Below, piece after piece: positions 8,633 through 44,930 of a stretch of 64,000 nucleotides of DNA. Position numbers and translations under genes: made by a program. Origin of the DNA: Vicinamibacteria bacterium (GTDB lineage Bacteria; Acidobacteriota; Vicinamibacteria; Fen-336); the NCBI GenBank assembly GCA_016934575.1, contig JAFGSN010000121.1, forward strand, positions 37,309 through 101,308, written 5' to 3'. Each line of letters opens with the position of its first letter. Within the stretch, counting starts at the first letter, position 1. The notes beneath the pieces are model-generated. The model ran no database searches. It had not been told where the DNA came from and saw nothing but the letters and a program-made list of their open reading frames with translations.

Positions 8633-9532
8633 TCAAGCGCGCGGATGGAAACGATCGTAGATGCGACGCAATCGCTCGCGAGTGACGTGCGTGTATATCT
8701 GCGTGGTCGAGATGTCCGCGTGGCCGAGCATGGCCTGCAAGGCGCGCAAATCCGCGCCCCGCTCGAGCAAGTGGGTCGCGAACGAGTGCCGCAGAACGTG
8801 CGGCGTCAGAATGTGCGCGACACCCGCGGACAACGCATGCCGTCTCACGATGCCCCATAACCCCATGCGGGACAACCGTCCGCCACGGCGGTTGAGAAAA
8901 AGCGCCGTTGACGACTTGCCGCAGGCGATTTGCCCTCGCGATTCGGACATATACCGCCGAATCCAACTCCGCGCAACGCTGCCGATCGGCACGAGCCTTT
9001 CCTTGCGTCCCTTGCCCAGGCAGGTCAGCACTCCCAACTCGAGATCAAGGTTTTCCGGCCGCAAATCGATGAGCTCTGACACACGCAGTCCGGTGGCATA
9101 CAGCAATTCGAGGATCGCCCGGTCGCGTATGCCCAGCCTCGTTCCAACGTCTGGCGCCGCCAGCAGCGCATCGATCTGTTCGATCGTGAGAAATCGAGGC
9201 AACGGCCGGAACGTTCGCGGCGCGCGAAGATTCTCCATCGGATCGTCATCCAGTCGTCCTTCACGTATTGCGAAGCGATACAACCCTCGCACGGCGTGCA
9301 CGACGCGCGCCGCCGAGCGCGGCGCCAGTCCGGAGACGCTCAGGCCGGCGATGAACTCGGTCAGGTCCGCTTGCCTGAGCTGCAAGACGTCACGACGACG
9401 AGAATCGGCGAAAGCCGTCAGCCGATCGAGATCACGACCATAAGCGTCCAGCGTATTGACGGCCAGCGCGCGCTCGATACGAAGGTGATTCAGATAATCG
9501 TGCTCTATGTGCGACGCATCGCGCCGATTCAT
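8633..9532 (-). CDS. xerD: site-specific tyrosine recombinase, XerD-like (chromosome dimer resolution)
   Basis: Xer N-terminal core-binding region (HLRIERALAVNTLDAYGRDL) plus catalytic R..HxxR..Y residues (LRHSFATHLLERGADLRALQAMLGHADISTTQIYTH). The ATG overlaps the murJ stop (ATGA). XerC and XerD cannot be distinguished from sequence alone. Confidence 0.7.
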   Translation of the reverse strand: MNRRDASHIEHDYLNHLRIERALAVNTLDAYGRDLDRLTAFADSRRRDVLQLRQADLTEFIAGLSVSGLAPRSAARVVHAVRGLYRFAIREGRLDDDPMENLRAPRTFRPLPRFLTIEQIDALLAAPDVGTRLGIRDRAILELLYATGLRVSELIDLRPENLDLELGVLTCLGKGRKERLVPIGSVARSWIRRYMSESRGQIACGKSSTALFLNRRGGRLSRMGLWGIVRRHALSAGVAHILTPHVLRHSFATHLLERGADLRALQAMLGHADISTTQIYTHVTRERLRRIYDRFHPRA

Positions 9533-11097
9533 TCCGGCGTCACCGTTTGACGCCGGCCATGCCGGCCCAGAAGCGCCATCACGACGCGCGCTTCAGGTAT
9601 GCGAAGCGCCAAAGCAGAAGCCAGGTACACGAAAACGCCGACGGCCACCGGCGCCGTTCCGGCGGCGATCTGCGCGAACAGACCGCCGGAGCCCCAAATG
9701 CCAACGCAGCCGCGTGCGGCGAGATGAACGCAGATGGCCATAACCGCGGCGGCCTGAGCCATGGCGAACGCCGCCTCGCCGAGGCCGGCGCCGCGCAAAC
9801 CTCCGACATGACGCTGAAAAGCGCACATCAGAACGCCGATATTCATGAAAGCCCCCACGCTCGTCCCCAGAGCGACGGCGGCGTATCCCATGATCGGGTA
9901 GCAGACCGCCATCACCGCGAGGCTCGTGGTCACGGCGGCCAGGCTGCCGAAAACAGGCAGGCGTGCGCGTTTCAGGCTGTAGAACGCCGGGACCACCACT
10001 TTCACGGCCGAGTATGCGACCAGCCCTATCGAATATACGAACAGAGCCAGGGAGGTTTTAGCGGTGTCCGCCGGCTGGTATCGGCCGTGTTCGAACAGCA
10101 TTCGAACGATCGGCTGCGCCAGGACCATCAATCCGGCGGTCGCCGGAATCGACACAAAGAACGCCATGCGCAGCGAGCGCCGCACGCATTGTCGCAATCC
10201 GTCGAGATCTCCCGCGGCGGCCTGACGCGCCGATTCCGCCGTCACCACTGTTCCGATCGCCACTCCAAAAAGGCCGATCGGCAGGTACAGGATGCGGAAG
10301 GCGTTCAACAGCCACGCTTGCGCCCCTTGCTCGTGTGACGCGAAATTGCTGCCGATGACGATATTGATTTCCACCGCCGCCAGCCCGATCGTGGCGGGCG
10401 CCATGAGCTTGAGAATCTGTCGTATGCGCGAGTCAAACGGCGCCCACTCGAATCGCGGCCGCCAGCCCAGCTTCAAGACGCCGGGGATCTGGATCGCCAA
10501 TTGCGCTAGCGCTCCAAGCAGCGCGCCGGCCGCCCATCCCATCACGACATGCCGGGGCGACAGCCCGAACCCCCACAGAGACACGCCGACGACGATCGCG
10601 ATGATGTTGAACATCGCCGGCGCAAAAGCCGGCGCTTCGTATCGCTGCTCTGTGTTCAGCACGCCCATCGTCACGGCCGCGAGAGAGACCAGCAGGAGAA
10701 ACGGCATCATGATGCGAGTCAGGAGAATCGTGAGCTCGGTCTTGCCGGTTATCCTCTCGAAGCCCGGAGCGAGAACATGAACAATGGCCGGCGCCGCCAG
10801 CCATCCCAACGCGATGAGCGCCGCCAGCGTTATTGTCAAGAGCGTCATCAGGCGCGCGATCAGCCGCTGGGCTTGCTCACGCCCGTCCTCCCGCAACGCG
10901 CACGCATAAGTCGGCGCCAGCGCGGCCGAGAGCGCTCCCTCCGCAAACAAATCGCGCAACAAGTTCGGAATCCGGAAGGCCACGAAAAAGGCGTCGGCAT
11001 GCATTCCCTGTCCGGCGCCGACCAGCGCCGCGAAAAGCTGATCGCGCGCCAGCCCCAGAACTCGCGACAGCAAGGTGAAACGCGAGATTCTACTCAC
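9529..11097 (-). CDS. murJ: lipid II flippase MurJ (MviN family)
   Basis: Polytopic MOP-superfamily protein with the MurJ N-terminus (SRISRFTLLSRVLGLARD). The track start at 11208 would overlap the divergent rpsT start and RBS. A GTG at 11097 gives the canonical MurJ N-terminus, so the exact start is uncertain. Confidence 0.78.
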   Translation of the reverse strand: MSRISRFTLLSRVLGLARDQLFAALVGAGQGMHADAFFVAFRIPNLLRDLFAEGALSAALAPTYACALREDGREQAQRLIARLMTLLTITLAALIALGWLAAPAIVHVLAPGFERITGKTELTILLTRIMMPFLLLVSLAAVTMGVLNTEQRYEAPAFAPAMFNIIAIVVGVSLWGFGLSPRHVVMGWAAGALLGALAQLAIQIPGVLKLGWRPRFEWAPFDSRIRQILKLMAPATIGLAAVEINIVIGSNFASHEQGAQAWLLNAFRILYLPIGLFGVAIGTVVTAESARQAAAGDLDGLRQCVRRSLRMAFFVSIPATAGLMVLAQPIVRMLFEHGRYQPADTAKTSLALFVYSIGLVAYSAVKVVVPAFYSLKRARLPVFGSLAAVTTSLAVMAVCYPIMGYAAVALGTSVGAFMNIGVLMCAFQRHVGGLRGAGLGEAAFAMAQAAAVMAICVHLAARGCVGIWGSGGLFAQIAAGTAPVAVGVFVYLASALALRIPEARVVMALLGRHGRRQTVTPE

Positions 11098-11196
11098 GTT
11101 GCGCGCGAGCGCGTGCGAACCATGATCGTCCTGCTTGTTGACGTTGCTCACCGTTTCCTTGTATATTATTTCTTTGTTTTCGGAAGGAGGATCCGA

Positions 11197-11466
11197 TTGG
11201 CTCATCATGCGTCAGCCCTGAAGCACATGAGACAGAGTCTCAAGCAACGGGCCTGTAATAAGCGAAATCTCTCGCAATTCAAGACCCAAGTCAAAAGGCT
11301 GCGCGCGGCCATTGACCGGGGCGACGTCGAGACGGCTCGAAAGCTGCTCCCGGAGACCGTTTCGGCCATCGACAAGGCCGCCAAGAAGGGCGTCGTTCAC
11401 GACAACGCCGCCGCGCGACACAAGAGCCGGCTCGCGCGCCGAGTGAACACGCTTTCCGCTGCCTGA
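11197..11466 (+). CDS. rpsT: 30S ribosomal protein S20
   Basis: Hidden inside the spurious ORF 10549..11466. TTG start at 11197, preceded by GGAAGGAGG (11183-11190). The translation MAHHASALKHMRQSLKQRACNKRNLSQFKTQVKRLRAAIDRGD...AAKKGVVHDNAAARHKSRLARRVNTLSAA aligns along its whole length to S20. E. coli rpsT also initiates at UUG. Confidence 0.82.
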   Translation: MAHHASALKHMRQSLKQRACNKRNLSQFKTQVKRLRAAIDRGDVETARKLLPETVSAIDKAAKKGVVHDNAAARHKSRLARRVNTLSAA

Positions 11467-16540: not shown

Positions 16541-19500
16541 TCACTCCCCTTCCCGCGCGACCGGCGCCGGAGCCCGGCCGTTTCCGCCGCGACCGCCGCC
16601 GCCGTTCAGAGTCAGGTTCAAGGCACCGGGGCCCAGGAGTCCTTCGATCGCATCCTGGAACGCCGCGCTGGGGCGAACTCGGAAAGTCGCGCCGGTGTTC
16701 AACGCGACGATGAACGCGCCGGTTCGCACGAGCTCGATCGCCACCGGGCAGTCGCCCGGATGCGCTTCGAGTATATCGCGGAGGCGTTCGCCTTTGGAGC
16801 GCGCCCAATCATCGCCCGCGAAACGGATCGTCACGTAGCGCGCGTCGGCCATCTTCGCCTCGTCCAGCGTGAGCGCGTCGCTTGCGAGAATCCTGGCCTT
16901 GCCGTCGTCGGGCACTTCGGCCTTGCCCTTAACGACCATGATGCGGTCTTCCGCCAGGCGTCCGGCCACCTTCTTGAAGGTCTCGGGGAACACGAGCACC
17001 TCGATGCCGCCATCCATGTCTTCGAGCGAAAACGTGGCCATGCGATCGCCTTTCTTCGTCTTGATGAGCCGCAAGCCCGTGACGATGCCGCCGATCGACA
17101 CTTCGCTCGGATTGCCCGCCTCGCGCAATCGGACGGACGATGTCGTGGTCAAGAGCGCAAGATCATCGCGGTGGCGTTCCAACGGGTGACCGGTGATGAA
17201 AAAGCCCAGCGTTTCCTTTTCATAGGAGAGACGCTCGCTATCGCTCCATTCGGGCGCATCCGGAATCGCGGCGAAATCAACGGGCGTTTCCGGCGACGGC
17301 TCGATGCTCCCGAACAGGCTCGTCTGGCCGTGCTCGCGGTCGCGCTGAGTTCTCTGGCCCGCTTCGATGGCCCGATCGACGACGGTTAGGAGCGCCGCTC
17401 TTCGCGCATCAAGCGAATCGAAGCAACCGCTCTTGATGAAGCTTTCGATGGCTCTGCGGTTCACGGCTTTCGAATCCACGCGCTCGCACAGGTCGTAAAG
17501 CGATCGGAACGCCCGCGATCGGCGCGCCTCGATCACGGCCTGCACCGCCCCCTCGCCCACGTTCTTGATCGCGGACAGACCGAACCGGATGTCGTCTCCT
17601 CTAACGGTGAAATACATTTCGGATTCATTGACGTCGGGCGGGAGGACGCGTATGCCCATCCCGCGGCACTCGCCGATGTACGCGACCATCTTGTCCGTGT
17701 TCGCGCGCTCTGAAGTCAGAAGCGCGGCCATGAAGTGCATCGGATAGTTCGCCTTGAGATAACCCGTCTGATAGGCCAACAGCGCATAGGCCGCCGAGTG
17801 CGACTTGTTGAAGCCGTATCCCGCGAACTGCTCCATGAGATCCCAGATCTTGCGGGCCTTCCGTTCGGCGACGCCGCGCGCGGCGCAGCCCGAGAGAAAT
17901 TTCTCGCGCTGGGCGGCCATGACCTCGACCTTCTTCTTTCCCATGGCCTTGCGCAGGATGTCCGCCTCTCCCATGCTGAAACCGGCCAGCGTCGAGGCGA
18001 TCTGCATCACCTGCTCCTGGTAGACCATGACGCCGTAAGTCCCGCTCAGGATCGGCTCGAGCGACGGCGTTTCATAGCTGACCTTCGTCGCTCCATGCCG
18101 GCGTCTGATGAAGTCCTCGATCATCTGCATCGGTCCGGGCCGATACAGAGCGTTGAGCGCCGTGAGATGCTCGAGCCGGTCGGGCTTGAAACGCCGCAGT
18201 ATGTCGCGCATTCCGTCGGACTCGAACTGGAACAGGCCCGAGGTCTGGCCTTTCGAGAACAGCTCATAGGTCTTGCCGTCGTCGAGCGGGATCTCCTGCA
18301 TGTCGACGCGCGCGCCGGTCTGTTCCGCGATCATCCTGACGCAATCATGAATAAGCGTCAGCGTCCTGAGGCCGAGGAAGTCCATCTTGAGCAGGCCGAT
18401 GCGCTCGACGCCTTTCATGTCGTACTGCGTCGTCACGTCGCCAGTGTTGCCCTTGAAGAGCGGCACGACGTCAGCCAGCGGCCTGGGCGCGATGACCACG
18501 CCGGCCGCGTGAGTCGACGCGTGGCGGGTCGTGCCTTCCAGCTTGCGCGAAATGTCGATCAGATCCTTGACGCGCGGATCCTTGTTATAGGCCTCGATGA
18601 GCGGCGGCGACTCTTCAAGCGCCTTGTCGAGGGTGATTCCGAGATCGTGCGGAATCATCTTCGCGATCTTGTCGACGTCGCCGTAGCTCATGTCAAGCAC
18701 GCGGCCGACGTCCCGCACGACCGCGCGCGCTTTCATCGTTCCGAAGGTGATGATTTGCGCGACGTTTTCCCTGCCGTACTTGCGAGTCACGTATTCGATC
18801 ACTTCGGCGCGCCGGTTCTCGCAGAAATCGATGTCGATGTCGGGCGGACTGATGCGTTCTTCGTTCAGAAAACGCTCGAAGATCAGATCGTTCTCGATCG
18901 GATCGATGTCGGTGATTTGCAGGCAATAGGCCACCAGGCTGCCGGCGGCCGAGCCGCGGCCCGGACCGACAGGCACGCCCCGCTCGCGCGCGAAGCGTAT
19001 GAAGTCCCATACGATGAGAAAGTAACCGGCGAATCCGACGCGGCGGATGACGGCGATCTCTTTTTCCAGGCGCTCTTCGTACACCGAAAGCGGGTAGCGC
19101 AGCCGTGCTCGAGCGCATAACTCCGCGAGCGCGTGACGCCTCCCTTCAAATCCTTCACGCGTCACGCGTTCGAAATAGCTCTCGACAGTGTGGCCGGGAG
19201 GCACCGCGAAATCCGGCAGCGTCTCGACGGCGCGCAGCGTGAAATCGCACATCTCCGCCACGCCGAGCGTGTTTTTGAGCGCCTCGGCGCCGTCCGGGAA
19301 CGCCTGCGCCATCTCCTCGGCGCTTTTCAGATAAAACTGCGGCGCCCCGAAACGCGGTCGATCGGCGTCATCGCGCTTCTTGCCCAACCCGATGCAAAGC
19401 AACACGTCGTGGGCCAGGTGATCGTCGCGGCTGATGTAATGCGCGTCATTGGTGGCCACGATCGGCAGTCCGGTCCGGTCGCGAATGCGCAGCAATCCCT

Positions 19501-20065
19501 CGTTGACGCGACGTTGCTCGGGTATTCCGTGATCCATCATTTCGAGAAAAAAGCGTCCCTTGTCGAAGATGTCGCCCAGCTCTCCGGCCACGCGCCAGGC
19601 GTCCTGGTCCTTGCCGTCGCGCAGGAAAGTCGCGATCTCTCCCGCCAGGCATCCGGAGAGGCAGACGATCCCCTCGTTGTGCCGAGCCAGAGCTTCCTTG
19701 TCGATGCGCGGCCGATGATAAAAGCCTTCCAGATAACCGATCGATACGAGCTTGACGAGATTGTGATACCCGGCGTCGTTCATCGCCAGCAGCGTCAGAT
19801 GGTGATAAGCCTCGCGGATGCCGCTGGCCGAGCGATCGTTCCGGCTGCCTTTGGCCGTGTAAGCCTCGCAACCCAGAAGCGGCTTGAGCCCCTTGGCGCG
19901 GCAGGTGTCGTGGAACTCCACGGCGCCGAACATATTGCCGTGGTCGGTGATCGCCAGAGCCGGCATTCCCAGGCGTACGGCCTGGTCGACGAGCTTGTCG
20001 ATGTGGCATGCTCCGTCAAGCAAGCTGTACTCCGTGTGCACATGAAGATGGACGAATTCAGGCAT
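16541..20065 (-). CDS. dnaE: DNA polymerase III alpha subunit
   Basis: 1174 aa with an N-terminal PHP domain (FVHLHVHTEYSLLDGA), polymerase core motifs and an OB fold. A 7-nt gap separates it from accA. Confidence 0.92.
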   Translation of the reverse strand: MPEFVHLHVHTEYSLLDGACHIDKLVDQAVRLGMPALAITDHGNMFGAVEFHDTCRAKGLKPLLGCEAYTAKGSRNDRSASGIREAYHHLTLLAMNDAGYHNLVKLVSIGYLEGFYHRPRIDKEALARHNEGIVCLSGCLAGEIATFLRDGKDQDAWRVAGELGDIFDKGRFFLEMMDHGIPEQRRVNEGLLRIRDRTGLPIVATNDAHYISRDDHLAHDVLLCIGLGKKRDDADRPRFGAPQFYLKSAEEMAQAFPDGAEALKNTLGVAEMCDFTLRAVETLPDFAVPPGHTVESYFERVTREGFEGRRHALAELCARARLRYPLSVYEERLEKEIAVIRRVGFAGYFLIVWDFIRFARERGVPVGPGRGSAAGSLVAYCLQITDIDPIENDLIFERFLNEERISPPDIDIDFCENRRAEVIEYVTRKYGRENVAQIITFGTMKARAVVRDVGRVLDMSYGDVDKIAKMIPHDLGITLDKALEESPPLIEAYNKDPRVKDLIDISRKLEGTTRHASTHAAGVVIAPRPLADVVPLFKGNTGDVTTQYDMKGVERIGLLKMDFLGLRTLTLIHDCVRMIAEQTGARVDMQEIPLDDGKTYELFSKGQTSGLFQFESDGMRDILRRFKPDRLEHLTALNALYRPGPMQMIEDFIRRRHGATKVSYETPSLEPILSGTYGVMVYQEQVMQIASTLAGFSMGEADILRKAMGKKKVEVMAAQREKFLSGCAARGVAERKARKIWDLMEQFAGYGFNKSHSAAYALLAYQTGYLKANYPMHFMAALLTSERANTDKMVAYIGECRGMGIRVLPPDVNESEMYFTVRGDDIRFGLSAIKNVGEGAVQAVIEARRSRAFRSLYDLCERVDSKAVNRRAIESFIKSGCFDSLDARRAALLTVVDRAIEAGQRTQRDREHGQTSLFGSIEPSPETPVDFAAIPDAPEWSDSERLSYEKETLGFFITGHPLERHRDDLALLTTTSSVRLREAGNPSEVSIGGIVTGLRLIKTKKGDRMATFSLEDMDGGIEVLVFPETFKKVAGRLAEDRIMVVKGKAEVPDDGKARILASDALTLDEAKMADARYVTIRFAGDDWARSKGERLRDILEAHPGDCPVAIELVRTGAFIVALNTGATFRVRPSAAFQDAIEGLLGPGALNLTLNGGGGRGGNGRAPAPVAREGE

Positions 20066-20319
20066 GATCGTTTTGTCGACTCCCGCGCCGAGTCATTGAA
20101 CGACGCGGAGGCCGGAGTCGATGATTATACCGCGCTCGGCGATCATCGCGACCCGGCGTTTCTCTCTCAACGACTCGCATTCCGGATCGTCATCGCTCGG
20201 CGCCGTCGTTTGTAGTCGCTCTCGGTTTGATGAATCATCTGGCGTCATGACGCGTGAAACCGGCCGGCGGCGGCCCAATGGCATGAACGGCCGCGACCTG
20301 TGATGATCATCCCTCCGCC

Positions 20320-22437
20320 ATGCGATCCTCCCGCCGCGAGCGACTGATCGCCGTCATCACCGCATACGCCGTCATCACGATCGCCATGACCTGGCCGGTC
20401 GCCGCGCGTATCGCTCATGATCTTCCCGCCGATCTGGGGGATCCGGTGCTCAACTGCTGGATCCTCGCTTGGGACGCGGACCACATCGTCCGTTTCATTG
20501 GAGGTGAATGGGAGGCTTTTCGCGGCTACTGGAACGCCAATATCTTCCATCCCGAGCCGCTGGCTCTGGCCTACTCGGAGCATCTCACGGCGCAGGCGGT
20601 CCAGATCGCGATTCCGTACGCGCTCACGCGGAACCCCATCCTGTGCCACAACCTGCTTTTCCTCTCGACGTTCTTTCTGTCGGCGCTGGGCGCCTTTTTT
20701 CTCGTGCGCGAGCTTTCGGGCGACGATCGCGCGGCCTCGATCTCCGGGCTGCTCTATGGTTTCGGCCTTTATCGTTTCACGCAGCTACCGCACTTGCAGG
20801 TCCTGTCCGCTCAGTGGATGCCTTTCGTCCTTCTCGGTCTTCGTCTCTTTGTCCGAAAGCGCTCGCGTCTCGCGTTGGCATTTGGGTGCTCGGCCCTGAT
20901 CATGCAGAATCTCTCATGCGGCTATCATCTGATGTATTTCTCCCCTGTCGCCGCGATTTACGTTCTTTTTGAGATGACGATCCAGGGACGACTCCGGGAC
21001 CACCGCGTCTGGACTGATCTGATGATCGCCGGGCTGACGATCATCGCGTTGTCGCTGCCGTTTCTTCTTCCTTACCTCGAGCTTCACGCGCGGAACGGCA
21101 TCGTGCGCCGACTCTGGGAAGTCAAGCTCTTTTCGGCCGACGCCTACTCCTATCTCACGGCCAACTCGTATTCACGACTCTGGGGAGGCGTGATCAGGGC
21201 CTATTCCAAGCCGGAGGGCGCGCTTTTCCCCGGCCTCTCGATCCTGATGCTTGGCGCGCTTGCCGTGCTCGGAGAGCTCATCGAGGCGTTTCGTCATGAG
21301 CGCCGCTCGACGGCCGTCGCGCCGGCGCACGGATTGGTCGATTGGCGATCCGTGATCATCATCACGGCGTGCCTCGTCATGTTTCTTCATGCCGTCGGCG
21401 GTCTCATGATCGCGTTGGGAGCACGCGGCCGTTTTTACGGCATTAATCGGATCGTGCCGTTACGAGACTTCAATTTCAATCTCGCGGCAGTCGTCGTTTC
21501 CGTCATCGTTCTCTGGATGATATCGGAGAATACGCGTCGCATGGCGGCCCGGTTCTTCCGTTCCGGAGTCGGTTTTTCCGTTCTTGCCGCGGCAACGGCC
21601 TTGCTGCTCTCCTTGGGTCCGACAATGCATTCAAGGGGCGTCGCCTTTGGCGGCGGGCCATATGCATGGCTCTATGACTTCGTTCCCGGCTTCGACGGAT
21701 TGCGGGTGCCCGCGCGTTTCGCCTGGGTGTCGTTCCTTTTCCTCGTCATCCTGGCCGGCCATGGCTCGGCACGTTTGATGCGCCGGTTTCCGGGCGGATG
21801 TCGGACGGCCCTGATCACGACGACTCTCGGCTTTCTGATACTCTTCGAATCCTTCGCCGCGCCTCTGCCGATGAATCTGCCCTACTGGACCGGCATACGA
21901 AGAATGCTGCCTCGCCGTCTCGAAACCGGCCCGCATCCCGCGGGCGTCTATCGCGCAGTCGCCGCCCTTCCGGCCGATTCCGTCCTGGCCGAGCTGCCGT
22001 TTGGCGAGGCGGCCAGCGATCTGCGTTACATGTATTCCTCGACGTTCCATTGGCGAAAGCTGCTGAACGGCTTTAGCGGCGCGTTGCCTCCGCGTTATCC
22101 CAAGCTGGCGGCGGATCTGTCGGGCGCTCTACGGGATCCGAACCGCGCCTGGCACGCGCTTGAATGCTCTCCAGCGACGCACGTCGTCGTCCACGAAGGA
22201 TTCTGGGGCATCCGCCGCAAGGGACGGCGTCTCACACGATGGTTGATCGAGAACGGTTGCGTCATCGTCGCGCGCGAGGGAGACGACGCGTTGCTCGCGC
22301 TTCCGCGTCGAAACCCGGCGTTCGCGCCAACAAGACGTCGAACGGCCCTTCCCGTCAATCGTGTGTGGCAGAATGTCGAGGACGAACGGCTGGCGCGCCT
22401 TTTGGCGCTCAACGGATCCTTCGCCTTGATGGAGTAG
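20320..22437 (+). CDS. large polytopic integral membrane protein. It has 12 or more predicted TM segments and a ~170-aa hydrophilic C-terminal domain. It may be a GT-C-fold glycosyltransferase-like protein, but its family is unknown.
   Basis: 705-aa ORF with many hydrophobic helices. An acidic motif (HDLPADLGDP) sits in the first extracytoplasmic loop after TM1, as in GT-C enzymes. The stop lies 5 nt before the downstream methyltransferase gene. Confidence 0.5.
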   Translation: MRSSRRERLIAVITAYAVITIAMTWPVAARIAHDLPADLGDPVLNCWILAWDADHIVRFIGGEWEAFRGYWNANIFHPEPLALAYSEHLTAQAVQIAIPYALTRNPILCHNLLFLSTFFLSALGAFFLVRELSGDDRAASISGLLYGFGLYRFTQLPHLQVLSAQWMPFVLLGLRLFVRKRSRLALAFGCSALIMQNLSCGYHLMYFSPVAAIYVLFEMTIQGRLRDHRVWTDLMIAGLTIIALSLPFLLPYLELHARNGIVRRLWEVKLFSADAYSYLTANSYSRLWGGVIRAYSKPEGALFPGLSILMLGALAVLGELIEAFRHERRSTAVAPAHGLVDWRSVIIITACLVMFLHAVGGLMIALGARGRFYGINRIVPLRDFNFNLAAVVVSVIVLWMISENTRRMAARFFRSGVGFSVLAAATALLLSLGPTMHSRGVAFGGGPYAWLYDFVPGFDGLRVPARFAWVSFLFLVILAGHGSARLMRRFPGGCRTALITTTLGFLILFESFAAPLPMNLPYWTGIRRMLPRRLETGPHPAGVYRAVAALPADSVLAELPFGEAASDLRYMYSSTFHWRKLLNGFSGALPPRYPKLAADLSGALRDPNRAWHALECSPATHVVVHEGFWGIRRKGRRLTRWLIENGCVIVAREGDDALLALPRRNPAFAPTRRRTALPVNRVWQNVEDERLARLLALNGSFALME

Positions 22438-22441
22438 CCCT

Positions 22442-24550
22442 GTGATAAATCTTCGTTTTCTGCGCCGCCTCGTTCGACGAATGATGACGCAAGAAGGCCG
22501 CGATCGCTTGTCGGGGATGGCACGGCGCCTTGTCGACGACAAAAAGCCCGCGTACTCCGAAAGCGAGCTTCTCGCCCGCACCGAGGAGTTCAATCGCGCC
22601 GCCGAGGCTTACTGGAGAAGCATCGCCGCCGATCCGGCCGGCCGGTCACACGCTTTCAACAAGCCGTTCAGCACTGTCAAGGACACCGGCGCCATTCTTT
22701 ACCGATTAGGGCTCGTGCTGAACGAGCTGGATCTCGGAGTGGGTCATATCGTGCTCGATTTCGGCGCCGGAAGCTGTTGGCTCTCCGCATGCCTCAATCG
22801 CCTGCGCTGCCGGACGATTTCCGTCGAAATCAGCGAAACGGCGCTGTCGCTCGGCCGCGAGCTTTTCGCCACGGATTCCCGGCTCACGGCCGATTTCGAA
22901 CCCGTTTTTCTTCCTTATGACGGCCACCGTATCGACCTGCCCCCCGAGTCCGTCGATCGAATCGTATGCTTCGACGCCTTTCACCACGTGCCCAATCAGG
23001 ACGCGGTGCTCGCCGAGCTGTATCGTGTTCTCAGGCCGGGAGGCCGCGCGGTTTTCGCGGAACCCGGGGAAGGGCACGCCCACTCGAATCAATCGCTCTT
23101 CGAGAGCGAGAAAACCGGCGTCCTCGAGAACGATCTCGACATACGCGAAATCGCCGCCAAGGCCCGCAAGGTCGGCTTCAACCGCGTTCTCTTGAAGCCT
23201 TATCCCGATCCGTCGGCGATCACCGTGACGGCCGACGAGTATCAACGGCTGATTGAAGGCTCGCGTAGAATCTACCCGCTGGACGTCTTGCGCGACAATC
23301 TGCGCCACTTTTATCTCTTCGTGCTGACCAAGGGAGAGCCTCGCCACGACAGCCGTAATCCACGACGGCTTCAGTCGACGATCGACGTGAGCGCCGAGTC
23401 GTCCGTCCTGCGCGGGCCGGCGGGCGCGAAGCGGACGTTCCATGCGCGGATCCGCAACACGGGCGACACGCTCTGGCTGCATGCAATCCACCCCGCGGGA
23501 GGATACGTCGGCCTCGGCGGACATCTGCTCGACGACAAACGCGAGGTCCTCGTCAGAGGCTATACGCGCGCATCGCTGCCGCGTGACGTGCCGCCCGGCA
23601 AGTCGGTGGATCTCGACGTGGATGTCGATCTGCCCGAGCATCGCGGCCGTTACACTCTCCAGTTGGACATGGTCGACGAATGGATCGCCTGGTTCGAGCA
23701 GGAAGGATCAAAGACGACGGAGATCGCTCTCGTCGTCGACTCCTATCCTGACAGCCGCGCGCCGCATCGTCTGGCCGCGGCCATCGAGCTGCTCTCGCCG
23801 CCTCCCGGCGCGGCGGTGCGCCCGGGCTCTCCTCTTCGCATCACGCTCCGGCTGCGAAACACCGGCGACACCGCTTGGCTCAATGAACCGTTCGGCGAAT
23901 TCGGCGCAGTCGCCTTGGGCGCCAGCCTGCTCGACGAGCTGGGCGCCGTGCGCTCGCGAGATCTTGCCCGCATGCCGCTTCCGCGCCCCGTCGCTCCGGA
24001 TGAAGCCGTCATGATGGATCTGCGCTTTCCCGCTCCGCCGATCCCCGGGCGCTTTGTCATCAAACTCGATCTCGTCGACGAAGGCGTGTGCTGGTTCGAG
24101 CATCACGGATCACCGACTATCGCGATCGCGGTGCAGACGAATGACGAGGTTCCGGACAGCCTGGCGCCCGGCACGCTTCTGGCGCGCATCGAGCCGACGA
24201 TCGTCGAAAACGCGCTGCAAGCCAAGGCGTCGACCGCTCTATGCTTCCATGCGCATGTCACGAACATCGGCAATACCCTCTGGCTGAGCGCTTTGAAACC
24301 GAGCCGGGGATACGTCGGCCTCGGCGCGCACCTCCGCAACGCCGACTTCGAGACGGTCGAGATGGATTTCTTGCGAGTCATGCTGCCTCGGGACGTTCCG
24401 CCGGGCGAGAGCGTCGACCTCGAATGTCGTTTCACCACCCCTCGAGAACCGGGCCGCTATGTGCTCGAGTTGGACATGGTGAACGAGCACATGTGCTGGT
24501 TCGCCGATCATGGTTCGGCTGTCGTTGGAATCGAGCTAAAAGTAAGCTGA
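22442..24550 (+). CDS. multidomain protein: N-terminal class I SAM-dependent methyltransferase followed by three tandem ~110-aa Ig-like repeat domains of unknown family
   Basis: MTase motif I (VLDFGAGSCW) and post-I/II motifs (VCFDAFHHV, LRPGGRAVFAEP). These are followed by three repeats, each carrying the signature N-[TI]-G-[DN]-T-x-W-L...G...LPR.V.P[GD]...DL...P...GR[YF]V..LD[ML]V.E..CWF..HGS. Confidence 0.55.
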   Translation: MINLRFLRRLVRRMMTQEGRDRLSGMARRLVDDKKPAYSESELLARTEEFNRAAEAYWRSIAADPAGRSHAFNKPFSTVKDTGAILYRLGLVLNELDLGVGHIVLDFGAGSCWLSACLNRLRCRTISVEISETALSLGRELFATDSRLTADFEPVFLPYDGHRIDLPPESVDRIVCFDAFHHVPNQDAVLAELYRVLRPGGRAVFAEPGEGHAHSNQSLFESEKTGVLENDLDIREIAAKARKVGFNRVLLKPYPDPSAITVTADEYQRLIEGSRRIYPLDVLRDNLRHFYLFVLTKGEPRHDSRNPRRLQSTIDVSAESSVLRGPAGAKRTFHARIRNTGDTLWLHAIHPAGGYVGLGGHLLDDKREVLVRGYTRASLPRDVPPGKSVDLDVDVDLPEHRGRYTLQLDMVDEWIAWFEQEGSKTTEIALVVDSYPDSRAPHRLAAAIELLSPPPGAAVRPGSPLRITLRLRNTGDTAWLNEPFGEFGAVALGASLLDELGAVRSRDLARMPLPRPVAPDEAVMMDLRFPAPPIPGRFVIKLDLVDEGVCWFEHHGSPTIAIAVQTNDEVPDSLAPGTLLARIEPTIVENALQAKASTALCFHAHVTNIGNTLWLSALKPSRGYVGLGAHLRNADFETVEMDFLRVMLPRDVPPGESVDLECRFTTPREPGRYVLELDMVNEHMCWFADHGSAVVGIELKVS
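23414..24541 (+). repeat. three in-frame tandem intragenic repeats (~330-400 nt each) encoding the repeated Ig-like domains of the MTase-repeat protein
   Basis: Repeat units at roughly 23414-23737, 23804-24136 and 24215-24541. Repeats 1 and 3 share exact 20-mers (for example gggatacgtcggcctcggcg) and a parallel cgcaacacgggcgacacgctctggctg-like segment. Confidence 0.6.
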
Positions 24551-24691: not shown

Positions 24692-25243
24692 TCAGAGACG
24701 GCGTTTCATGCGCGCGGACGCGCGTCGAACCGCCGGTTTGCTCTCCAGCAGTCGCTCGATCTGGACAAGATGGTTCAGATCGTGCGCCGCCTCCATCGTC
24801 ACGAACTCCGCGACCGTCTGGCGGCCGCGCTTTTCGTGAACGCCGTATGACGACTGCCAGACTTGCCTGGGCACCGCTTTCAACAACGCGAGATTGCTTT
24901 CGCGCAGAACGCGGAAAACCGTCACGGAGCGCCGTGGATCACTCCACGCGTAATTGCACTTCTCCGACCAAAGATGCTCATCCCACCACTGAAGCCGAAC
25001 GCCGGGGGTCGCCAGCATGTTACGAAACCGCCAGCCCATCGCCAATTCGGAGTCGGCCAGATGCGCGAGAATCTCGACGATCGACCACTTTCCCGGCGCC
25101 GGCCGGCGATCGAGCTTTCTGCGGGGAATGCCACGAATCAACCGTTCAAGTCTCGTGGGCGTGGCTTGAAGCAGCCGGATCGGGTCGCGGTCTTTCAAGT
25201 ATCCCAACACCCGTATCCGGTACTCCTCGATGGTTTCAGGCAT
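24692..25243 (-). CDS. DinB/YfiT-like (DinB_2 family) putative metal-dependent hydrolase
   Basis: 183 aa with a four-helix-bundle signature (WSIVEILAHLADSE...HDLNH). It is convergent with the MTase-repeat gene. Confidence 0.6.
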   Translation of the reverse strand: MPETIEEYRIRVLGYLKDRDPIRLLQATPTRLERLIRGIPRRKLDRRPAPGKWSIVEILAHLADSELAMGWRFRNMLATPGVRLQWWDEHLWSEKCNYAWSDPRRSVTVFRVLRESNLALLKAVPRQVWQSSYGVHEKRGRQTVAEFVTMEAAHDLNHLVQIERLLESKPAVRRASARMKRRL

Positions 25244-38243: not shown

Positions 38244-39389
38244 GTGGCTCGAATCACTCCTCTCACGCCGACGATCGATCTCACGCGGCGACGCGGCAAG
38301 CTCGGCTTTCGCAGCCGATTACGTCACGCGCATCGTCACGTCTTCACGCTCGATCTCTACTCGCACCTGAGAGAAAAGCATCCCGAAACGCACGTGGGCT
38401 GGTGGCGTTTTCCGCTTCCCGAGGGCGAGTCCGAGACGACAATCGGCATCGACCTCACGTCGATCGGACCGGATTCGCTCTGGAAGGAAGGGCCGATCGG
38501 ACGGGAATCAGCGCTCGACTCCTGGTCGAATCCTGAATACGCCTTCGATCCGATCATCGGGATTCAGCTCGTCCTGCGCTCGGCGAAGGGTCGCGTGGTT
38601 GAGAACCGCTTCGTGGCGGGCAGGATCGCCGATCCCGACGTGTTGCGCTCTTATTACCATCGAGTGCACGCCGCACACGGCTACACGCCGACCGAGCCGT
38701 TCCTCTTCGAGCTGCACGAAGCGATGCTACGCAGGTTGTCCGGATTGTTCTCACTCCATATCCCGCGGGGAGGCCGCGTCCTCGACGCGGGTTGCGGCCG
38801 GAGCCTCTTCACGGAGATTCGACCCGATTGGCCTTTCACGATCGTGGCCGCCGATGTCGACTACGACCTTCTTGCGGCTCGCAAGAGCGTCTTCCCCGCT
38901 TTACGGTGGACCGTGTCGGAAGCCAGTCCGCTCCCTTATCGCGACGGCGCTTTCGACGCGCTCTTCGCTGGAGAGCTGATCGAGCATCTCGACGATCCGA
39001 GCGCGGCCCTGGCCGAGTTCGGGCGTGTCTTGAAACCCGGAGGCGTCCTCATCCTGACGACTCCCAACCGCCTACGGTTGGCCAACGTCGCGGACCGCTC
39101 CGAACGTCCTTACAGCCCCGATCATCTGAGCGAGCTGTCCTTTGACGAGACACGCGACCTGCTGATCCGGGAGGGCTTCGAGATCCTGCGCGCCACCGGC
39201 GTCTATATCGAGTTGCTCCTCAACTGGCTTTCGGCGCTTCCCAAGCTTGACCGCCTGCAACGTCGCTGGAACAAACGCTGGGCGATTCCATTAATGCGGC
39301 TGCTGTTCTCTGCCGGCGCGCTGGCGCCGCGCTACGCCCTGGATCTCATCTTCGTGGCACGGCGGAAGACGGGCTCCGCGCCTAGATGA
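38244..39389 (+). CDS. class I SAM-dependent methyltransferase with an N-terminal ~160-aa domain of unknown function
   Basis: MTase motif I (VLDAGCGRSLF) and post-III (VLKPGGVLILTTPN) lie in the C-terminal half. The start is uncertain. Confidence 0.58.
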   Translation: MARITPLTPTIDLTRRRGKLGFRSRLRHAHRHVFTLDLYSHLREKHPETHVGWWRFPLPEGESETTIGIDLTSIGPDSLWKEGPIGRESALDSWSNPEYAFDPIIGIQLVLRSAKGRVVENRFVAGRIADPDVLRSYYHRVHAAHGYTPTEPFLFELHEAMLRRLSGLFSLHIPRGGRVLDAGCGRSLFTEIRPDWPFTIVAADVDYDLLAARKSVFPALRWTVSEASPLPYRDGAFDALFAGELIEHLDDPSAALAEFGRVLKPGGVLILTTPNRLRLANVADRSERPYSPDHLSELSFDETRDLLIREGFEILRATGVYIELLLNWLSALPKLDRLQRRWNKRWAIPLMRLLFSAGALAPRYALDLIFVARRKTGSAPR

Positions 39390-41238: not shown

Positions 41239-41365
41239 ATCAGACCTCCTTCTCGAACGGCGTTCGACGCCTTCGACAGACTCTATCACGCGCACAGCGA
41301 ATCGCGGAGCGTTCGCGCGCACGATCCGCTCGACCGTAGGCGCATGATTCGCCTATGATGTTTTG

Positions 41366-43009
41366 ATGACCATGGCGACTCCGTGTCCACGCACGCCGCG
41401 CCTGATCGATTTCGGCGATCTGCCCACGCCTCCCAGCGCGCTCTTTCGAGACTACGTGGCCAGCCGTTCCGGCGCCCTCGAGTTCTTTGCGAGCGACTGG
41501 AGCCCAGACGCGATTCTTGAAGCGGCGCGACGCGCCGTGTCACATGAACGCCCGCGCGCGGCCGTCGCCAAGGCGCTCGTCCGCCAACAGAGCGCTCGCG
41601 GCGCCAGGGCGGCCGAGTGCGCGGCGCGGTCCCTGGCCGACGACAGGTGCATCGCCGTCGTCACCGGCCAGCAGCCGGTTCTCTTTGGCGGCCCGATGCT
41701 CGTTCTATACAAGGCGCTCGCGATCAGGCGACTCGCCGCGTTCTTGCGCGAGAGATGGGACGGTCCGGTCGTTCCCGTTTTCTGGATTGCCTCGGACGAC
41801 CATGATTTCGAAGAGGTCCGGACAATCACCGTCTTCGACGCGGAAGAACGACCCGGGGAGCTACGATACGCTCCGCATGACGATCCGGGCGGACGTCCGA
41901 CGTCAAGCATCGTCCTTGACGCGACAATCACGGAAACGCTAAACATCCTACGCTCCTTGTTGCCTCGGACATCCTGGAGCGACGCCCTGATCGATCAGCT
42001 CGCGGCGGCTTATCAGCCCGGCCGGGCTCTTTCCGACGCCTTCGGCCTGTTGCTCTCCGCGCTGACGCCCGACGTCGTACTCCTCGATCCCGGCGACGCC
42101 GCGCTCAAGTCGCTCATGACGGAGCTGTTCGTCCGGGAGGCCGTCGAGCGCTCGCCGGTTTCGCGCATGGCCGCCGGCGTCGGTGAGCGTCTACGGGCTG
42201 CCGGTTATCATGAACAGGTTCCGCTCCGTTCCGGATATCTCAGCCTATTCTGGTCCGAGGACGGCGCGAGACGAGCGCTCGCCGTACACGCAGACTCAAT
42301 CGAGGTGCGCGGCACGAATCGGCGCCTGTCGTTCGACGATCTCGCGTCGCTCGTTCGCGCACGCCCCGAGCATTGGAGTCCGGGCGCTCTCCTGCGGCCT
42401 CTCGCTCAGGATCTCTTGCTGCCGACCGCCGTATACGTCGGCGGTCCGGCCGAGATCGCCTATCACGCGCAGCTCGGCGCCGCATATGCGGATTTCGGCG
42501 TCTCGCGCCCCGTCGTTTTTCCGCGTCCAAGCGTCACGTTGCTCACGCCGTCGAACGTCCGAGCGCTGGAATCGGAGAGGCTCTCGTTGACGCAGGCCCT
42601 GGGAGACGTCGAGCAACTGGTCTCCGAGCGGGCGCGCCAGGAGCATCCAGCGGTCGAGTCGTCGTTCGCGAGCATCCGGCGCGCTCTCGAACGCGAGATG
42701 TCAACCGTGAGCGCCGCCGTGAGCGCCGTCGACCCGACTCTCGAGGCGGCGGCCGAAACGACTCTCGGACGCGCTTGGCACCCGATCGCCGCGCTGCATG
42801 AAAAGGCCCTGCGCGCCGTCAAGCGCCGCGAGCAAACGCGCGCCACGCGGTTGCGACGCGCGCACGACATGCTGCTTCCGGGAAGCGAGCTTCAAGAGCG
42901 TCGCATCGCGCTGTGTTCGTATCTCGCGCGTCATGAACCGTCATGGATCGGCGACCTCGAAGCGCGTCTCGATCCATGGGCGCGCGCGCATCAGGTGATC
43001 GAGCTTTGA
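41366..43009 (+). CDS. bshC: bacillithiol biosynthesis cysteine-adding enzyme BshC
   Basis: BshC/YllA family signatures align to B. subtilis BshC: VVTGQQPVLFGGPMLVLYK, VPVFWIASDDHDFEE, LRPLAQDLLLPTAVYVGGPAEIAYHAQL. The start is ATG 41366 or 41372. The TTG at 41363 is less likely. Confidence 0.78.
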   Translation: MTMATPCPRTPRLIDFGDLPTPPSALFRDYVASRSGALEFFASDWSPDAILEAARRAVSHERPRAAVAKALVRQQSARGARAAECAARSLADDRCIAVVTGQQPVLFGGPMLVLYKALAIRRLAAFLRERWDGPVVPVFWIASDDHDFEEVRTITVFDAEERPGELRYAPHDDPGGRPTSSIVLDATITETLNILRSLLPRTSWSDALIDQLAAAYQPGRALSDAFGLLLSALTPDVVLLDPGDAALKSLMTELFVREAVERSPVSRMAAGVGERLRAAGYHEQVPLRSGYLSLFWSEDGARRALAVHADSIEVRGTNRRLSFDDLASLVRARPEHWSPGALLRPLAQDLLLPTAVYVGGPAEIAYHAQLGAAYADFGVSRPVVFPRPSVTLLTPSNVRALESERLSLTQALGDVEQLVSERARQEHPAVESSFASIRRALEREMSTVSAAVSAVDPTLEAAAETTLGRAWHPIAALHEKALRAVKRREQTRATRLRRAHDMLLPGSELQERRIALCSYLARHEPSWIGDLEARLDPWARAHQVIEL

Positions 43010-43028
43010 ACCGGAGAAGCGATCGATC

Positions 43029-44201
43029 ATGAGAATCGGAATCACATGCTACCCCACCGTCGGAGGGTCCGGAGCGGTCGCCGCGGAGCTGGGCAAACAG
43101 CTCGCCCGGCGCGGGCACTCGGTGCATTTCGTCTCGTACCGTTTGCCTTTCCGTCTCGGTGGATTCGACGAACATATATGTTTTCATGAAGTGGACGTCA
43201 CGACTTACAGTCTGTTCGAGTACCCTCCGCACGATCTCGCGCTCGCGGCCAAGATGGCCGAGGTTTCCCGAGATCAGTCGCTTGACCTCTTGCACGTCCA
43301 CTACGCCATCCCCCACGCCATCGCCGGTTTCCTTGCGCAGCAAATGCTGGGCGATGCGGCGCCGCGCCTCGTTACGACGCTTCACGGAACGGATATCACG
43401 CTCGTGGGCCAGGATCGCTCGTTCTTTGAAATCACTCGCTTCGGCATTGAGCGCTCGAACGGCGTCACGGCCGTCTCCCGATTCCTCGCGCGCATGACCA
43501 TGGACGAGTTCCAGGTCTCTCGCGATATCGAGGTCATCCCCAATTTCGTCGACGTCTCGCGTCACTGCGCCAATTGCTCCTGTTGTGACAGGCGCGCGCT
43601 CGCGCCGAACAGCGAGCGGATTCTGTTGCACATGTCGAACTTCCGCCCGGTTAAACGCGTCCACGACGTGATCCGCGTTCTCGAACGCGTGAACCGCGAC
43701 GTCCCCAGCGTTCTGCTCATGGTCGGCGACGGCCCGGAGCGCGCTTCGGCTCAGGCCCTGGCGCGGCGTCTGGGAGTGGCCGATCGCGTGCGTTTTCTCG
43801 GACGTCAGGACGCCGTCGAGGAGTTCACCGGCAAGGCCGACCTGTACCTCCTTCCGTCCGAGTTGGAGTCGTTCGGCCTGTCGGCGCTCGAGGCGATGGC
43901 CTGCGGCGTGCCGGTCATCGGCTCGGACGCAGGCGGCCTGCCCGAAGTGGTCGTGAACGGCGAGACGGGCTTTCTCGTTCCCGTCGGCGACATCGAGAGC
44001 ATGGCCGCGCGCGCGCGCGAGCTTCTGACGGACGAAACGCGGCGTCGTGAGATGGGAGCCGCCGCCTGCCGTCGTGTATCCAATCTGTTCAACGCCGAAA
44101 TGATCGTGACGCAGTATGAACGGCACTACGAGCGCGTCTTGGCGGGCACGACGAAAAAAGACGCCGCAGTCACAAGCGCTACTGATCGGAAAGGACAATG
44201 A
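43029..44201 (+). CDS. bshA: N-acetyl-alpha-D-glucosaminyl L-malate synthase BshA (GT4 glycosyltransferase)
   Basis: N-terminus MRIGITCYPTVGGSGAVAAELGKQLARRGH closely resembles B. subtilis BshA. The GT4 C-terminal E-x7-E region is present (ESFGLSALEAMACGVPVI). Confidence 0.82.
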   Translation: MRIGITCYPTVGGSGAVAAELGKQLARRGHSVHFVSYRLPFRLGGFDEHICFHEVDVTTYSLFEYPPHDLALAAKMAEVSRDQSLDLLHVHYAIPHAIAGFLAQQMLGDAAPRLVTTLHGTDITLVGQDRSFFEITRFGIERSNGVTAVSRFLARMTMDEFQVSRDIEVIPNFVDVSRHCANCSCCDRRALAPNSERILLHMSNFRPVKRVHDVIRVLERVNRDVPSVLLMVGDGPERASAQALARRLGVADRVRFLGRQDAVEEFTGKADLYLLPSELESFGLSALEAMACGVPVIGSDAGGLPEVVVNGETGFLVPVGDIESMAARARELLTDETRRREMGAAACRRVSNLFNAEMIVTQYERHYERVLAGTTKKDAAVTSATDRKGQ

Positions 44202-44204
44202 AGG

Positions 44205-44930
44205 ATGAGCCACGATTTCGACGTCGCCGCCATATGCGCCCATCCCGATGATGCGGATCTCATCATGGGAGGAACGCTGGCGCGCCAGACAAGGTTGGAC
44301 CGGCGCGTGGCGTTGGTGGATTTGACACGCGGCGAATCGGGCAGCCGTGGAACTCCCGAGACCCGCGCCGCCGAGGCCCAGGAAGCGGCGCGCATTCTCG
44401 GCGTCGCTCATCGCGAGTGCCTCGATTTGCCGGACGCATGTCTCGAGTCAAGCACGGAGCAGAAAAATCCCGTGGTCGAGGCGATTCGACGCCTCAGGCC
44501 GCGCGTCGTATTGCTGCAGCACTGGCGACAACGGCATCCGGATCATGCCGCCGCCGGACGGATCGCCTACGAGGCGTCGTTCCTGGCCGGCCTACGCAGT
44601 TACAGGCCTGATCTCGGTCCGCCCTACCGTCCTTTCAAGCTCATTTACGCGCTCGCGCTCACCGAGCACCATGACGTCATCCCGTCCTTCGTCGTCGACA
44701 TAACGTCGACCTGGGAAATCAAGATGAGGGCCGTACAAGCCTTTGCCAGCCAGTTCACGCCCGCGCCCGGTGAAAGCGTGCCCCTGGCCCTCGACCGCTT
44801 CCAACAGAACGTGGAGCTGGCGTCCCGCAGGCACGGCCAGCGAATCGGAGCGCTTTACGGCGAGGGATTCGTCATACGCGAGGGACTCGCCGTGAGCGAT
44901 CTGCTCTCTCTTGACGTGCCTTCTTTTTGA
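44205..44930 (+). CDS. bshB: N-acetyl-alpha-D-glucosaminyl L-malate deacetylase BshB (LmbE/PIG-L family)
   Basis: LmbE motif (VAAICAHPDDADLIMGGTLA) with His/Asp zinc ligands. It lies 3 nt after bshA. Confidence 0.78.
   Translation: MSHDFDVAAICAHPDDADLIMGGTLARQTRLDRRVALVDLTRGESGSRGTPETRAAEAQEAARILGVAHRECLDLPDACLESSTEQKNPVVEAIRRLRPRVVLLQHWRQRHPDHAAAGRIAYEASFLAGLRSYRPDLGPPYRPFKLIYALALTEHHDVIPSFVVDITSTWEIKMRAVQAFASQFTPAPGESVPLALDRFQQNVELASRRHGQRIGALYGEGFVIREGLAVSDLLSLDVPSF

Follow-up and report, generated by a model that had tools for sequence, protein, structure and literature searches.

In ABC (ATP-binding cassette)-transporter-dependent O-antigen pathways, the WbdD methyltransferase terminator is recognised by Wzt. 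Glycosyltransferases of the GT-C(A) type use a lipid-phosphate-linked sugar donor at the extracytoplasmic face of the membrane (PMC8035078). Among them YfhO (PF09586), the N-acetylglucosamine transferase of lipoteichoic acid in B. subtilis and S. aureus and of wall teichoic acid in Listeria, is a polytopic enzyme with an extracytoplasmic acidic loop and an undecaprenyl-phosphate (C55-P)-linked sugar donor (PMC8035078). FW (four-tryptophan, NBR1-like) domains serve protein binding and protein-protein recognition in eukaryotic autophagy (PMC9233695). In bacteria, they occur in various architectures, mostly near the C-terminus, the published examples being XRE-FW proteins (PMC3357945). No methyltransferase (MTase) with one to three FW domains was found described in the literature on FW domains. 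Here we analyse two adjacent open reading frames, ORF1 and ORF2, in a 64-kb stretch (the window) of a metagenome-assembled genome (MAG) from Vicinamibacteria (Acidobacteriota). ORF1 can be assigned with high confidence, from its structural model, to the GT-C(A)-type integral membrane glycosyltransferases, in an uncharacterised YfhO/DUF6311-related family, and ORF2, also with high confidence, to the cytoplasmic S-adenosylmethionine (SAM) MTases, with three FW domains. We think it rather likely that two enzymes from two large, separately distributed families have come to lie side by side at this locus, in an arrangement that is lineage-specific and probably co-transcribed.

An AlphaFold2 model of ORF1 was built from 46 sequences (predicted local distance difference test, pLDDT, 86.8; predicted template modelling score 0.88). 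When it was compared with known structures by Foldseek, the top 16 matches were STT3, ArnT, DPY19 and AftA, all with probability 1.00, whereas major facilitator superfamily (MFS), multidrug and toxin extrusion (MATE) and other transporters stayed at a probability of 0.23 or less and a TM-score of 0.12 or less. A sequence-only reading of this DNA had proposed the GT-C fold, and the structure search bears it out. Its polytopic nature and a weak Mem_trans match of one homologue (E 0.005) might suggest that ORF1 is instead a transporter or a non-enzymatic membrane protein; so far as computation can tell, the fold searches refute this, and it is extremely improbable. A GT-C sequence profile run against PDB chains returned just spurious caspase-7 matches (E≥0.06).

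The model contains 14 long helices within residues 5-511, followed by an alpha/beta domain from residue 512 to about 665 and a low-confidence tail. By the positive-inside rule, 13 of the 14 helices are best read as transmembrane, with the N-terminus inside and the C-terminus outside, in keeping with the at least 12 transmembrane helices and the soluble C-terminal domain of about 170 residues claimed in the sequence-only reading. The N-terminus is Arg-rich, the first transmembrane helix comprises residues 5-23 and the acidic sequence HDLPADLGDP comes directly after it. In this topology the first loop (residues 24-89), a conserved loop at residues 432-462 and the C-terminal domain would be extracytoplasmic, and the acidic motif would lie in the first extracytoplasmic loop, where it had been placed before. 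In the 46 homologues D38 and D41 of this motif are invariant, and D34, P36 and G40 are conserved in at least 90 per cent. Other invariant residues are E87, H88, Q160, P456, G457, R462, P464 and R466, and the conserved periplasmic-loop motif reads PGFDGLRVPAR. ORF1 has the polytopic membrane module with GT-C fold and, in an extracytoplasmic loop, the conserved DxD-like acidic residues that are expected of a GT-C enzyme; their correspondence to the catalytic Asp of solved enzymes is only putative.

The statement that no family motif is recognisable holds for ORF1 itself, which stayed below the Pfam and NCBIfam thresholds, but calls for some qualification in view of its relatives: 21 of the 46 homologues matched Pfam YfhO weakly (best E 5.8e-07), and some relatives in the database carry precomputed matches to PF19830 (DUF6311) or PF09586. 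ORF1 gave no YfhO match at E≤1; judged by sequence, it is a distant relative of YfhO and not a demonstrable member. Among the candidates scored in a 90%-clustered database 2,131 matches to the ORF1 family were significant, and a profile search of 1.84 billion 50%-cluster representatives gave 20,926 matches at E≤1e-3, 12,137 at E≤1e-10 and 4,121 at E≤1e-30. A literature search on DUF6311 found no papers.

How does ORF1 compare with the characterised GT-C enzymes? YfhO/DUF6311 is the only curated family matched by its relatives. ORF1 shares with YfhO the polytopic GT-C architecture and the extracytoplasmic acidic loop, and by analogy it would share the polyprenyl-phosphate-linked sugar donor. 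A difference is that ORF1 comes from a diderm acidobacterium, which has no teichoic acids, and that no CsbB-type GT2 or GtcA flippase gene lies near it among the scanned ORFs of the window (the Pfam scans covered the major ORFs passing a filter on codon-position GC content, GC3, plus three near the pair, and left out ORFs at about 57.9-62.4 kb). Mycobacterial AftA and AftD, which use decaprenyl-phospho-arabinose (DPA) donors, are only 12-13% identical to ORF1; AftD is far larger and has carbohydrate-binding modules, and no DPA-pathway gene was found in the window. Identity to ArnT, the transferase of 4-amino-4-deoxy-L-arabinose to lipid A, is 11-14%; the C-terminal domain of ORF1 is larger, and there are no arn-type donor genes nearby. 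ORF1 could also act on proteins, as glycosyltransferases of oligosaccharyltransferase or PMT type do, rather than modify glycans or lipids. Unlike AglB, PglB and STT3, it lacks the WWDYG motif (there is no 'WW' dipeptide in its 705 residues), and a lipid-pyrophosphate-linked oligosaccharide donor has no support for it; we regard such a role as quite unlikely.

ORF2 was matched by Pfam Methyltransf_11 (63.3 bits, above threshold, residues 105-205) and, in three stretches, by N_BRCA1_IG (FW, PF16158; 52.3 bits, cutoff 28). In its AlphaFold2 model (pLDDT 91.1) a helical N-terminal extension precedes the Rossmann domain, and three beta-sandwiches follow; Rossmann fold, motif I and profile match agree in identifying a class I SAM-dependent MTase. 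Identity among the repeats is 36-43%, and in the DNA they appear as repeat families with a spacing of 402-405 nt. Two Trp residues, one in NxGxTxW and one in a C-terminal WF motif, are invariant across all three, and the repeats have the character of FW domains, though with two to three Trp per repeat and not four. With the FW domain of NBR1 and ILRUN they share the above-threshold match and the beta-sandwich fold, and with most bacterial FW domains the site near the C-terminus; in contrast to the published bacterial XRE-FW proteins, ORF2 carries them on an MTase. No hydrophobic or transmembrane segment and no signal peptide was detected in the ORF2 sequence. Since, in addition, the enzyme is SAM-dependent, it should be cytoplasmic, and would therefore act on the side of the membrane opposite the GT-C active site. 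By description it resembles the WbdD-type glycan MTases, which are also cytoplasmic class I SAM enzymes with extra non-catalytic domains, but it has no kinase or coiled-coil domain, and there are no wzm/wzt genes in the window.

The MTase-FW family to which ORF2 belongs has at least 938 members, whose FW domains number one to three. Beside the Rossmann fold (positions 22970-23080, ORF2 residues 177-212), two motifs of the form D-x-F-H-H-x-P-N and E-P-x-E-x-H are conserved in the family. In the first (consensus DAFHHVPN) residues D178, F180, H181, H182, P184 and N185 are invariant, in the second (consensus EPGEGH) E207, P208, E210 and H212. These His/Glu-rich motifs could form a metal- or substrate-binding site.

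The gene models of NCBI (P0001 and P0121) are the same as ORF1 and ORF2 (100% identity and coverage) and are labelled 'hypothetical protein' and 'methyltransferase domain-containing protein', respectively. The TAG of ORF1 and the GTG of ORF2 are 4 nt apart (22438-22441, CCCT). The sequence-only reading was right about the close spacing and gave 5 nt, which is the coordinate difference and needs only a trivial correction; its account of the 254-bp upstream region and of the dnaE and DinB_2 flanks agrees with ours. A GGAG sequence 7 nt before the GTG fits coupled translation of ORF2 with ORF1. With the alternative ATG at 22481 as the start of ORF2, some 43 nt would separate the genes, a spacing that is operon-like even so. 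Because of the close spacing and the Shine-Dalgarno sequence the two genes are probably co-transcribed at this locus, as had been supposed. A consensus scan found no terminator-like site between them. Over the whole region the numbers of promoter and terminator consensus sites were not above those in shuffled sequences; no sigma-70 match was found on the + strand upstream of ORF1, and the only one in the intergenic region was a 9/12 site on the - strand (20170-20142). An Rfam scan of the 254-bp leader and the region around the pair gave no match at E≤1 to a regulatory RNA or riboswitch, and the whole window gave neither an Rfam nor a tRNA match.

According to the sequence-only reading, the pair could form an undescribed two-gene system, a proposal that a lack of joint conservation in related genomes would refute. 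This is what was found. In the closest relative (locus L001) the pair is kept, with GT-C and MTase 70% and 76% identical, respectively, in matching DinB_2 / ECF sigma / TPR / MshEN / EAL synteny (ECF, extracytoplasmic function), so that both loci belong to the same narrow lineage. Elsewhere the two genes part. From GTDB species representatives, 79 loci were taken that encode MTase-FW relatives (best-segment identity 31-64%), with flanks of as much as 8 kb; in none of them (0/79) was an ORF1-type GT-C gene found upstream of the MTase-FW gene. The next-closest MTase relatives (57-58% identity) adjoin an ATP synthase operon or unrelated genes and lack the GT-C partner. Conversely, none of 83 loci centred on GT-C relatives (39-47% identity), 55 of which have at least 1 kb of downstream sequence, contained an MTase-FW gene. 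When all ORFs of the 79 loci were clustered in search of another partner of MTase-FW, no family occurred in more than about 11 loci except the MTase itself and its antisense shadows. Only L001 keeps the pair, and the pairing is a lineage-specific, ordinary local arrangement, not a conserved two-gene system.

The GT-C relatives have a conserved neighbourhood of their own. Of the 51 loci informative on this point, 44 have an alanine-aminotransferase-like gene upstream; in 40 of 50 the gene downstream codes for a BioF/Kbl-family pyridoxal phosphate (PLP) enzyme, and SpoIIE and an M1 peptidase come next. Compared with this mainstream family, whose members are on average 52% identical among themselves, ORF1 and its counterpart in L001 show a mean identity of 44%. 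ORF1 could be an orthologue that has moved or else a paralogue. The mainstream synteny is seen in L083 (5796-14165) and in most of L084-L163; in L083 aminotransferase and GT-C genes overlap by 4 nt. Its PLP acyltransferase scores above the cutoff of TIGR01825 and is also similar to serine palmitoyltransferases. In another record (P0122), a contig of 3.6 kb which holds a 78% identical MTase, an unannotated + strand gene of 334 codons overlaps the MTase start and could be a truncated GT-C.

The 103 immediate neighbours of MTase-FW genes were most often GT4 (8), other MTases (6), GH99 (3), UbiA, PMT_2 and ABC ATPases (2 each). Two loci, L060 (Pyrinomonadaceae) and L069 (Blastocatellia), have in common a co-directional order of DprE1-like oxidase, decaprenyl-phosphate phosphoribosyltransferase, MTase-FW and GT-Cs. 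The oxidases score 443-460 bits with NF053785, just below the cutoff (500), and the phosphoribosyltransferases 291-293 bits with NF008977, above the cutoff (234). The GT-Cs that follow are YfhO-like or ORF1-like and detectably related to ORF1 (phmmer E 3e-09), with further GT-C paralogues close by. Such a gene content is suggestive of a glycan pathway of the polyprenyl-phospho-pentose (DPA-like) kind in Acidobacteriota. In a cyanobacterium (L065, 2825-18114) a distant MTase-FW homologue lies in a polysaccharide cluster with the gene order Wzt (ABC plus Wzt_C), MTase, GT4, MTase-FW, two MTases, GT4, a 1003-residue YfhO, acyltransferase_3 and GDP-mannose 4,6-dehydratase. An ORF1-like GT-C is directly downstream of MTase-FW in L030; L004, with a 54% identical three-repeat MTase orthologue, has a divergent TMEM260-like/PMT_2 GT-C, and L045 a convergent PMT_2 GT-C. 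By a rough estimate about 2 ORF1-type (A1-like) genes would be expected per Mb, compared with 4 loci found in about 1 Mb (window and L001 excluded), so that a GT-C enrichment near MTase-FW genes is suggestive only. L030 (6113-11839), from a long-read MAG, contains two divergent MTase-FW paralogues, and its GT-C and one MTase are each split over two frames, which probably reflects assembly frameshifts and not pseudogenes. In L021 a candidate Wzt-like ABC ATPase, recognised in translation by its ATPase motifs and long C-terminal extension, is near the MTase-FW gene.

If ORF1 works as every characterised GT-C enzyme does, it would take a sugar from a polyprenyl-phosphate-linked donor and pass it on to a glycan, lipid or protein acceptor outside the cytoplasm. 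Its approximately 13 transmembrane helices would put three parts on the periplasmic side: the D34/D38/D41 loop, the PGFDGLRVPAR loop and the C-terminal domain. The organism makes Kdo (3-deoxy-D-manno-oct-2-ulosonic acid)-containing lipopolysaccharide, given that a WaaA-like Kdo transferase and the lipid II flippase MurJ are present in the window, and this lipopolysaccharide is among the classes of acceptor that a GT-C enzyme in the periplasm might use. Because some distant MTase-FW members are embedded in polysaccharide clusters, a sugar or glycan is the most likely substrate class of the family, and ORF2 would act on a sugar or on a lipid-linked or nascent glycan at the cytoplasmic face, while its three FW beta-sandwiches would most likely bind a polymeric or protein partner. 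If the two enzymes cooperate, they would act one after the other from the two sides of the membrane: ORF2 might, for instance, methylate a lipid-linked sugar or glycan inside, and ORF1 transfer the product once it has been exported. A loose functional link between MTase-FW and GT-C in envelope glycan synthesis is plausible but unproven; for ORF1 and ORF2 themselves such a division of labour, with the MTase at the cytoplasmic face and the GT-C outside, is somewhere between unlikely and tentatively possible.

Several findings weigh against this overall interpretation of the two enzymes. Neither family has a biochemically characterised member. The best Pfam match of ORF1 was PTPS_related at E 0.36, no curated threshold was reached, and NCBIfam gave nothing. 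The MTase domain of ORF2 is nearest to small-molecule MTases (MitM, RebM, phosphoethanolamine MTases, Coq5/UbiG), and with so generic a domain the structure does not point to a particular substrate. Eukaryotic FW domains bind proteins, not glycans (PMC9233695). GT-C or glycan genes accompany a minority of the MTase-FW genes (about 7 of 81 loci), and many GT-C paralogues in acidobacterial genomes bear on any excess of adjacencies over background. Among the scanned window ORFs there is no GT2 polyprenyl-phosphate glycosyltransferase, GtrA-type flippase, UbiA or DprE1 that could serve donor synthesis; these ORFs do not make up a three-component transmembrane glycosylation system, whose partners could lie elsewhere in the genome.

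A dedicated system in which GT-C and MTase-FW act obligatorily on the same surface polymer, adding a methylated sugar, would account for the 4-nt gap with its Shine-Dalgarno sequence, for the retention of the pair in L001 and for the independent co-directional adjacencies of MTase-FW and GT-C in L030 and L060 (directly downstream in both), L069 and L065, the more so as the GT-Cs of L060 and L069 are related to ORF1. It is nevertheless rather unlikely, in view of the 0/79 and 0/83 in the reciprocal context tests, the absence of the pair even with MTase relatives of 57-58% identity, the different conserved synteny of the mainstream GT-C orthologues, the opposite membrane sides faced by the two enzymes, and the lack of donor-synthesis or flippase genes nearby. 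At the other extreme, a rearrangement may have put a GT-C paralogue beside an MTase-FW gene whose product methylates a small molecule, lipid or protein unconnected with the GT-C product. The heterogeneous or different contexts of both families elsewhere, the small-molecule affinities of the MTase domain, the role of eukaryotic FW domains in protein-protein recognition (PMC9233695) and the diverse architectures of the bacterial ones (PMC3357945) all fit functionally unrelated neighbours, but the tight spacing suggests co-expression, and co-directional glycan or GT-C contexts recur in distant lineages; we regard this explanation as possible without being probable. The juxtaposition of two separately distributed enzymes, lineage-specific and probably co-transcribed, is the reading we prefer. 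One could go further and suppose that in Acidobacteriota and in some further phyla the MTase-FW proteins assist GT-C-dependent glycan pathways as accessory enzymes in the cytoplasm, where they would methylate either a nascent lipid-linked glycan or a polyprenyl-phosphate-linked sugar (a DPA-like pentofuranose donor, for instance), with FW as a glycolipid/glycan-binding or partner-docking module and with our pair as a minimal version of the Blastocatellia clusters of DprE1, phosphoribosyltransferase, MTase-FW and GT-C. This is a speculative proposal and we would not expect it to hold; if true, it would point to an arabinan-like, methylated envelope glycan outside Actinobacteria.

Acidobacteriota are abundant soil bacteria, and their envelope glycans are poorly known. 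The present analysis provides fold-level annotation for two of their proteins and brings to light a GT-C family that is very large (roughly 21,000 clusters at 50% identity, some 4,100 of them at E≤1e-30) and in which no member has been characterised. The better lead lies outside the window, in the clusters of other Acidobacteriota in which MTase-FW accompanies DprE1-like, decaprenyl-phosphate phosphoribosyltransferase and GT-C genes: they hint at polyprenyl-phospho-pentose-based glycan synthesis in this phylum and, for the FW domain, whose function is as yet understood in the autophagy receptors of eukaryotes only, at a role in bacteria.

Table 1. Features of the ORF1-ORF2 locus, of other parts of the window and of two comparison loci. 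Positions are those of the window unless preceded by a locus name.
Feature	Position	Strand	Description
ORF1	20320-22437	+	ATG start, 705 aa; GT-C-fold membrane glycosyltransferase, YfhO/DUF6311-related uncharacterised family
Membrane module (residues 1-511)	20320-21852	+	about 13 predicted transmembrane helices, N-terminus in; from AlphaFold2 secondary structure and loop charges
HDLPADLGDP codons (residues 33-42)	20416-20445	+	acidic motif, first extracytoplasmic loop; candidate catalytic/metal-binding site
C-terminal soluble alpha/beta domain (residues 512-705)	21853-22434	+	putatively periplasmic; last approximately 40 residues of low confidence
GGAG, Shine-Dalgarno-like motif	22431-22434	+	inside the 3' end of ORF1, 7 nt 5' of the ORF2 GTG
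ORF2	22442-24550	+	GTG start, 702 aa; cytoplasmic class I SAM-dependent MTase with three C-terminal FW (NBR1-like) domains
N-terminal family-specific helices and Rossmann MTase domain (residues about 36-300)	22547-23341	+	motif I VLDFGAGSCW; FHHVPN, EPGEGH
FW (NBR1-like) beta-sandwich repeat 1	23366-23746	+	from Pfam, model and repeat alignment
FW repeat 2	23762-24148	+	36% identical to repeat 1
FW repeat 3	24161-24547	+	43% identical to repeat 1
Intergenic region, 254 bp	20066-20319		between divergent dnaE (-) and ORF1 (+); presumed promoter region of the pair
dnaE	16541-20065	-	divergent from ORF1
DinB_2 gene	24692-25243	-	convergent with ORF2, 141 bp downstream
MurJ	9529-11208		only flippase-type gene among the scanned ORFs
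Second Methyltransf_11 protein	38244-39389		381 aa; MTase domain at residues about 180-271
Bacillithiol biosynthesis set	41363-44930		
BshC	41363-43009		
BshA-like	43029-44201		GT4
BshB-like	44205-44930		PIG-L
WaaA-like	51220-52521		Kdo transferase
L060 cluster	L060:5639-11731	co-directional	DprE1-like / phosphoribosyltransferase / MTase-FW / GT-C
L069 cluster	L069:5617-16832	co-directional	DprE1-like / phosphoribosyltransferase / MTase-FW / GT-C

Apart from the pair, the content of the window is housekeeping. Upstream of the pair lie comEC-like, a tRNA/rRNA uracil-5-methyltransferase-family gene, coaX, nadC, CDP-alcohol phosphatidyltransferase, xerC/D-like, murJ, holA, leuS, accA and dnaE. 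Downstream follow DinB_2, ECF sigma, TPR, MshEN, EAL, PLP enzymes, an OPT transporter, peptidases, a second Methyltransf_11 protein, bshC-bshA-bshB, metH, waaA, pgk, tpiA and a sigma-54 activator. The order shared with L001 (25396-30556) is ECF sigma, a 145-residue protein without Pfam match (a possible anti-sigma), TPR, MshEN (on the - strand) and EAL phosphodiesterase. The second Methyltransf_11 gene is placed after the OPT transporter and a C69 peptidase, and its product has an N-terminal extension without Pfam match. The BshA-like GT4 and the Kdo transferase are the only glycosyltransferases among the scanned ORFs besides ORF1, the former as part of the set for bacillithiol biosynthesis.

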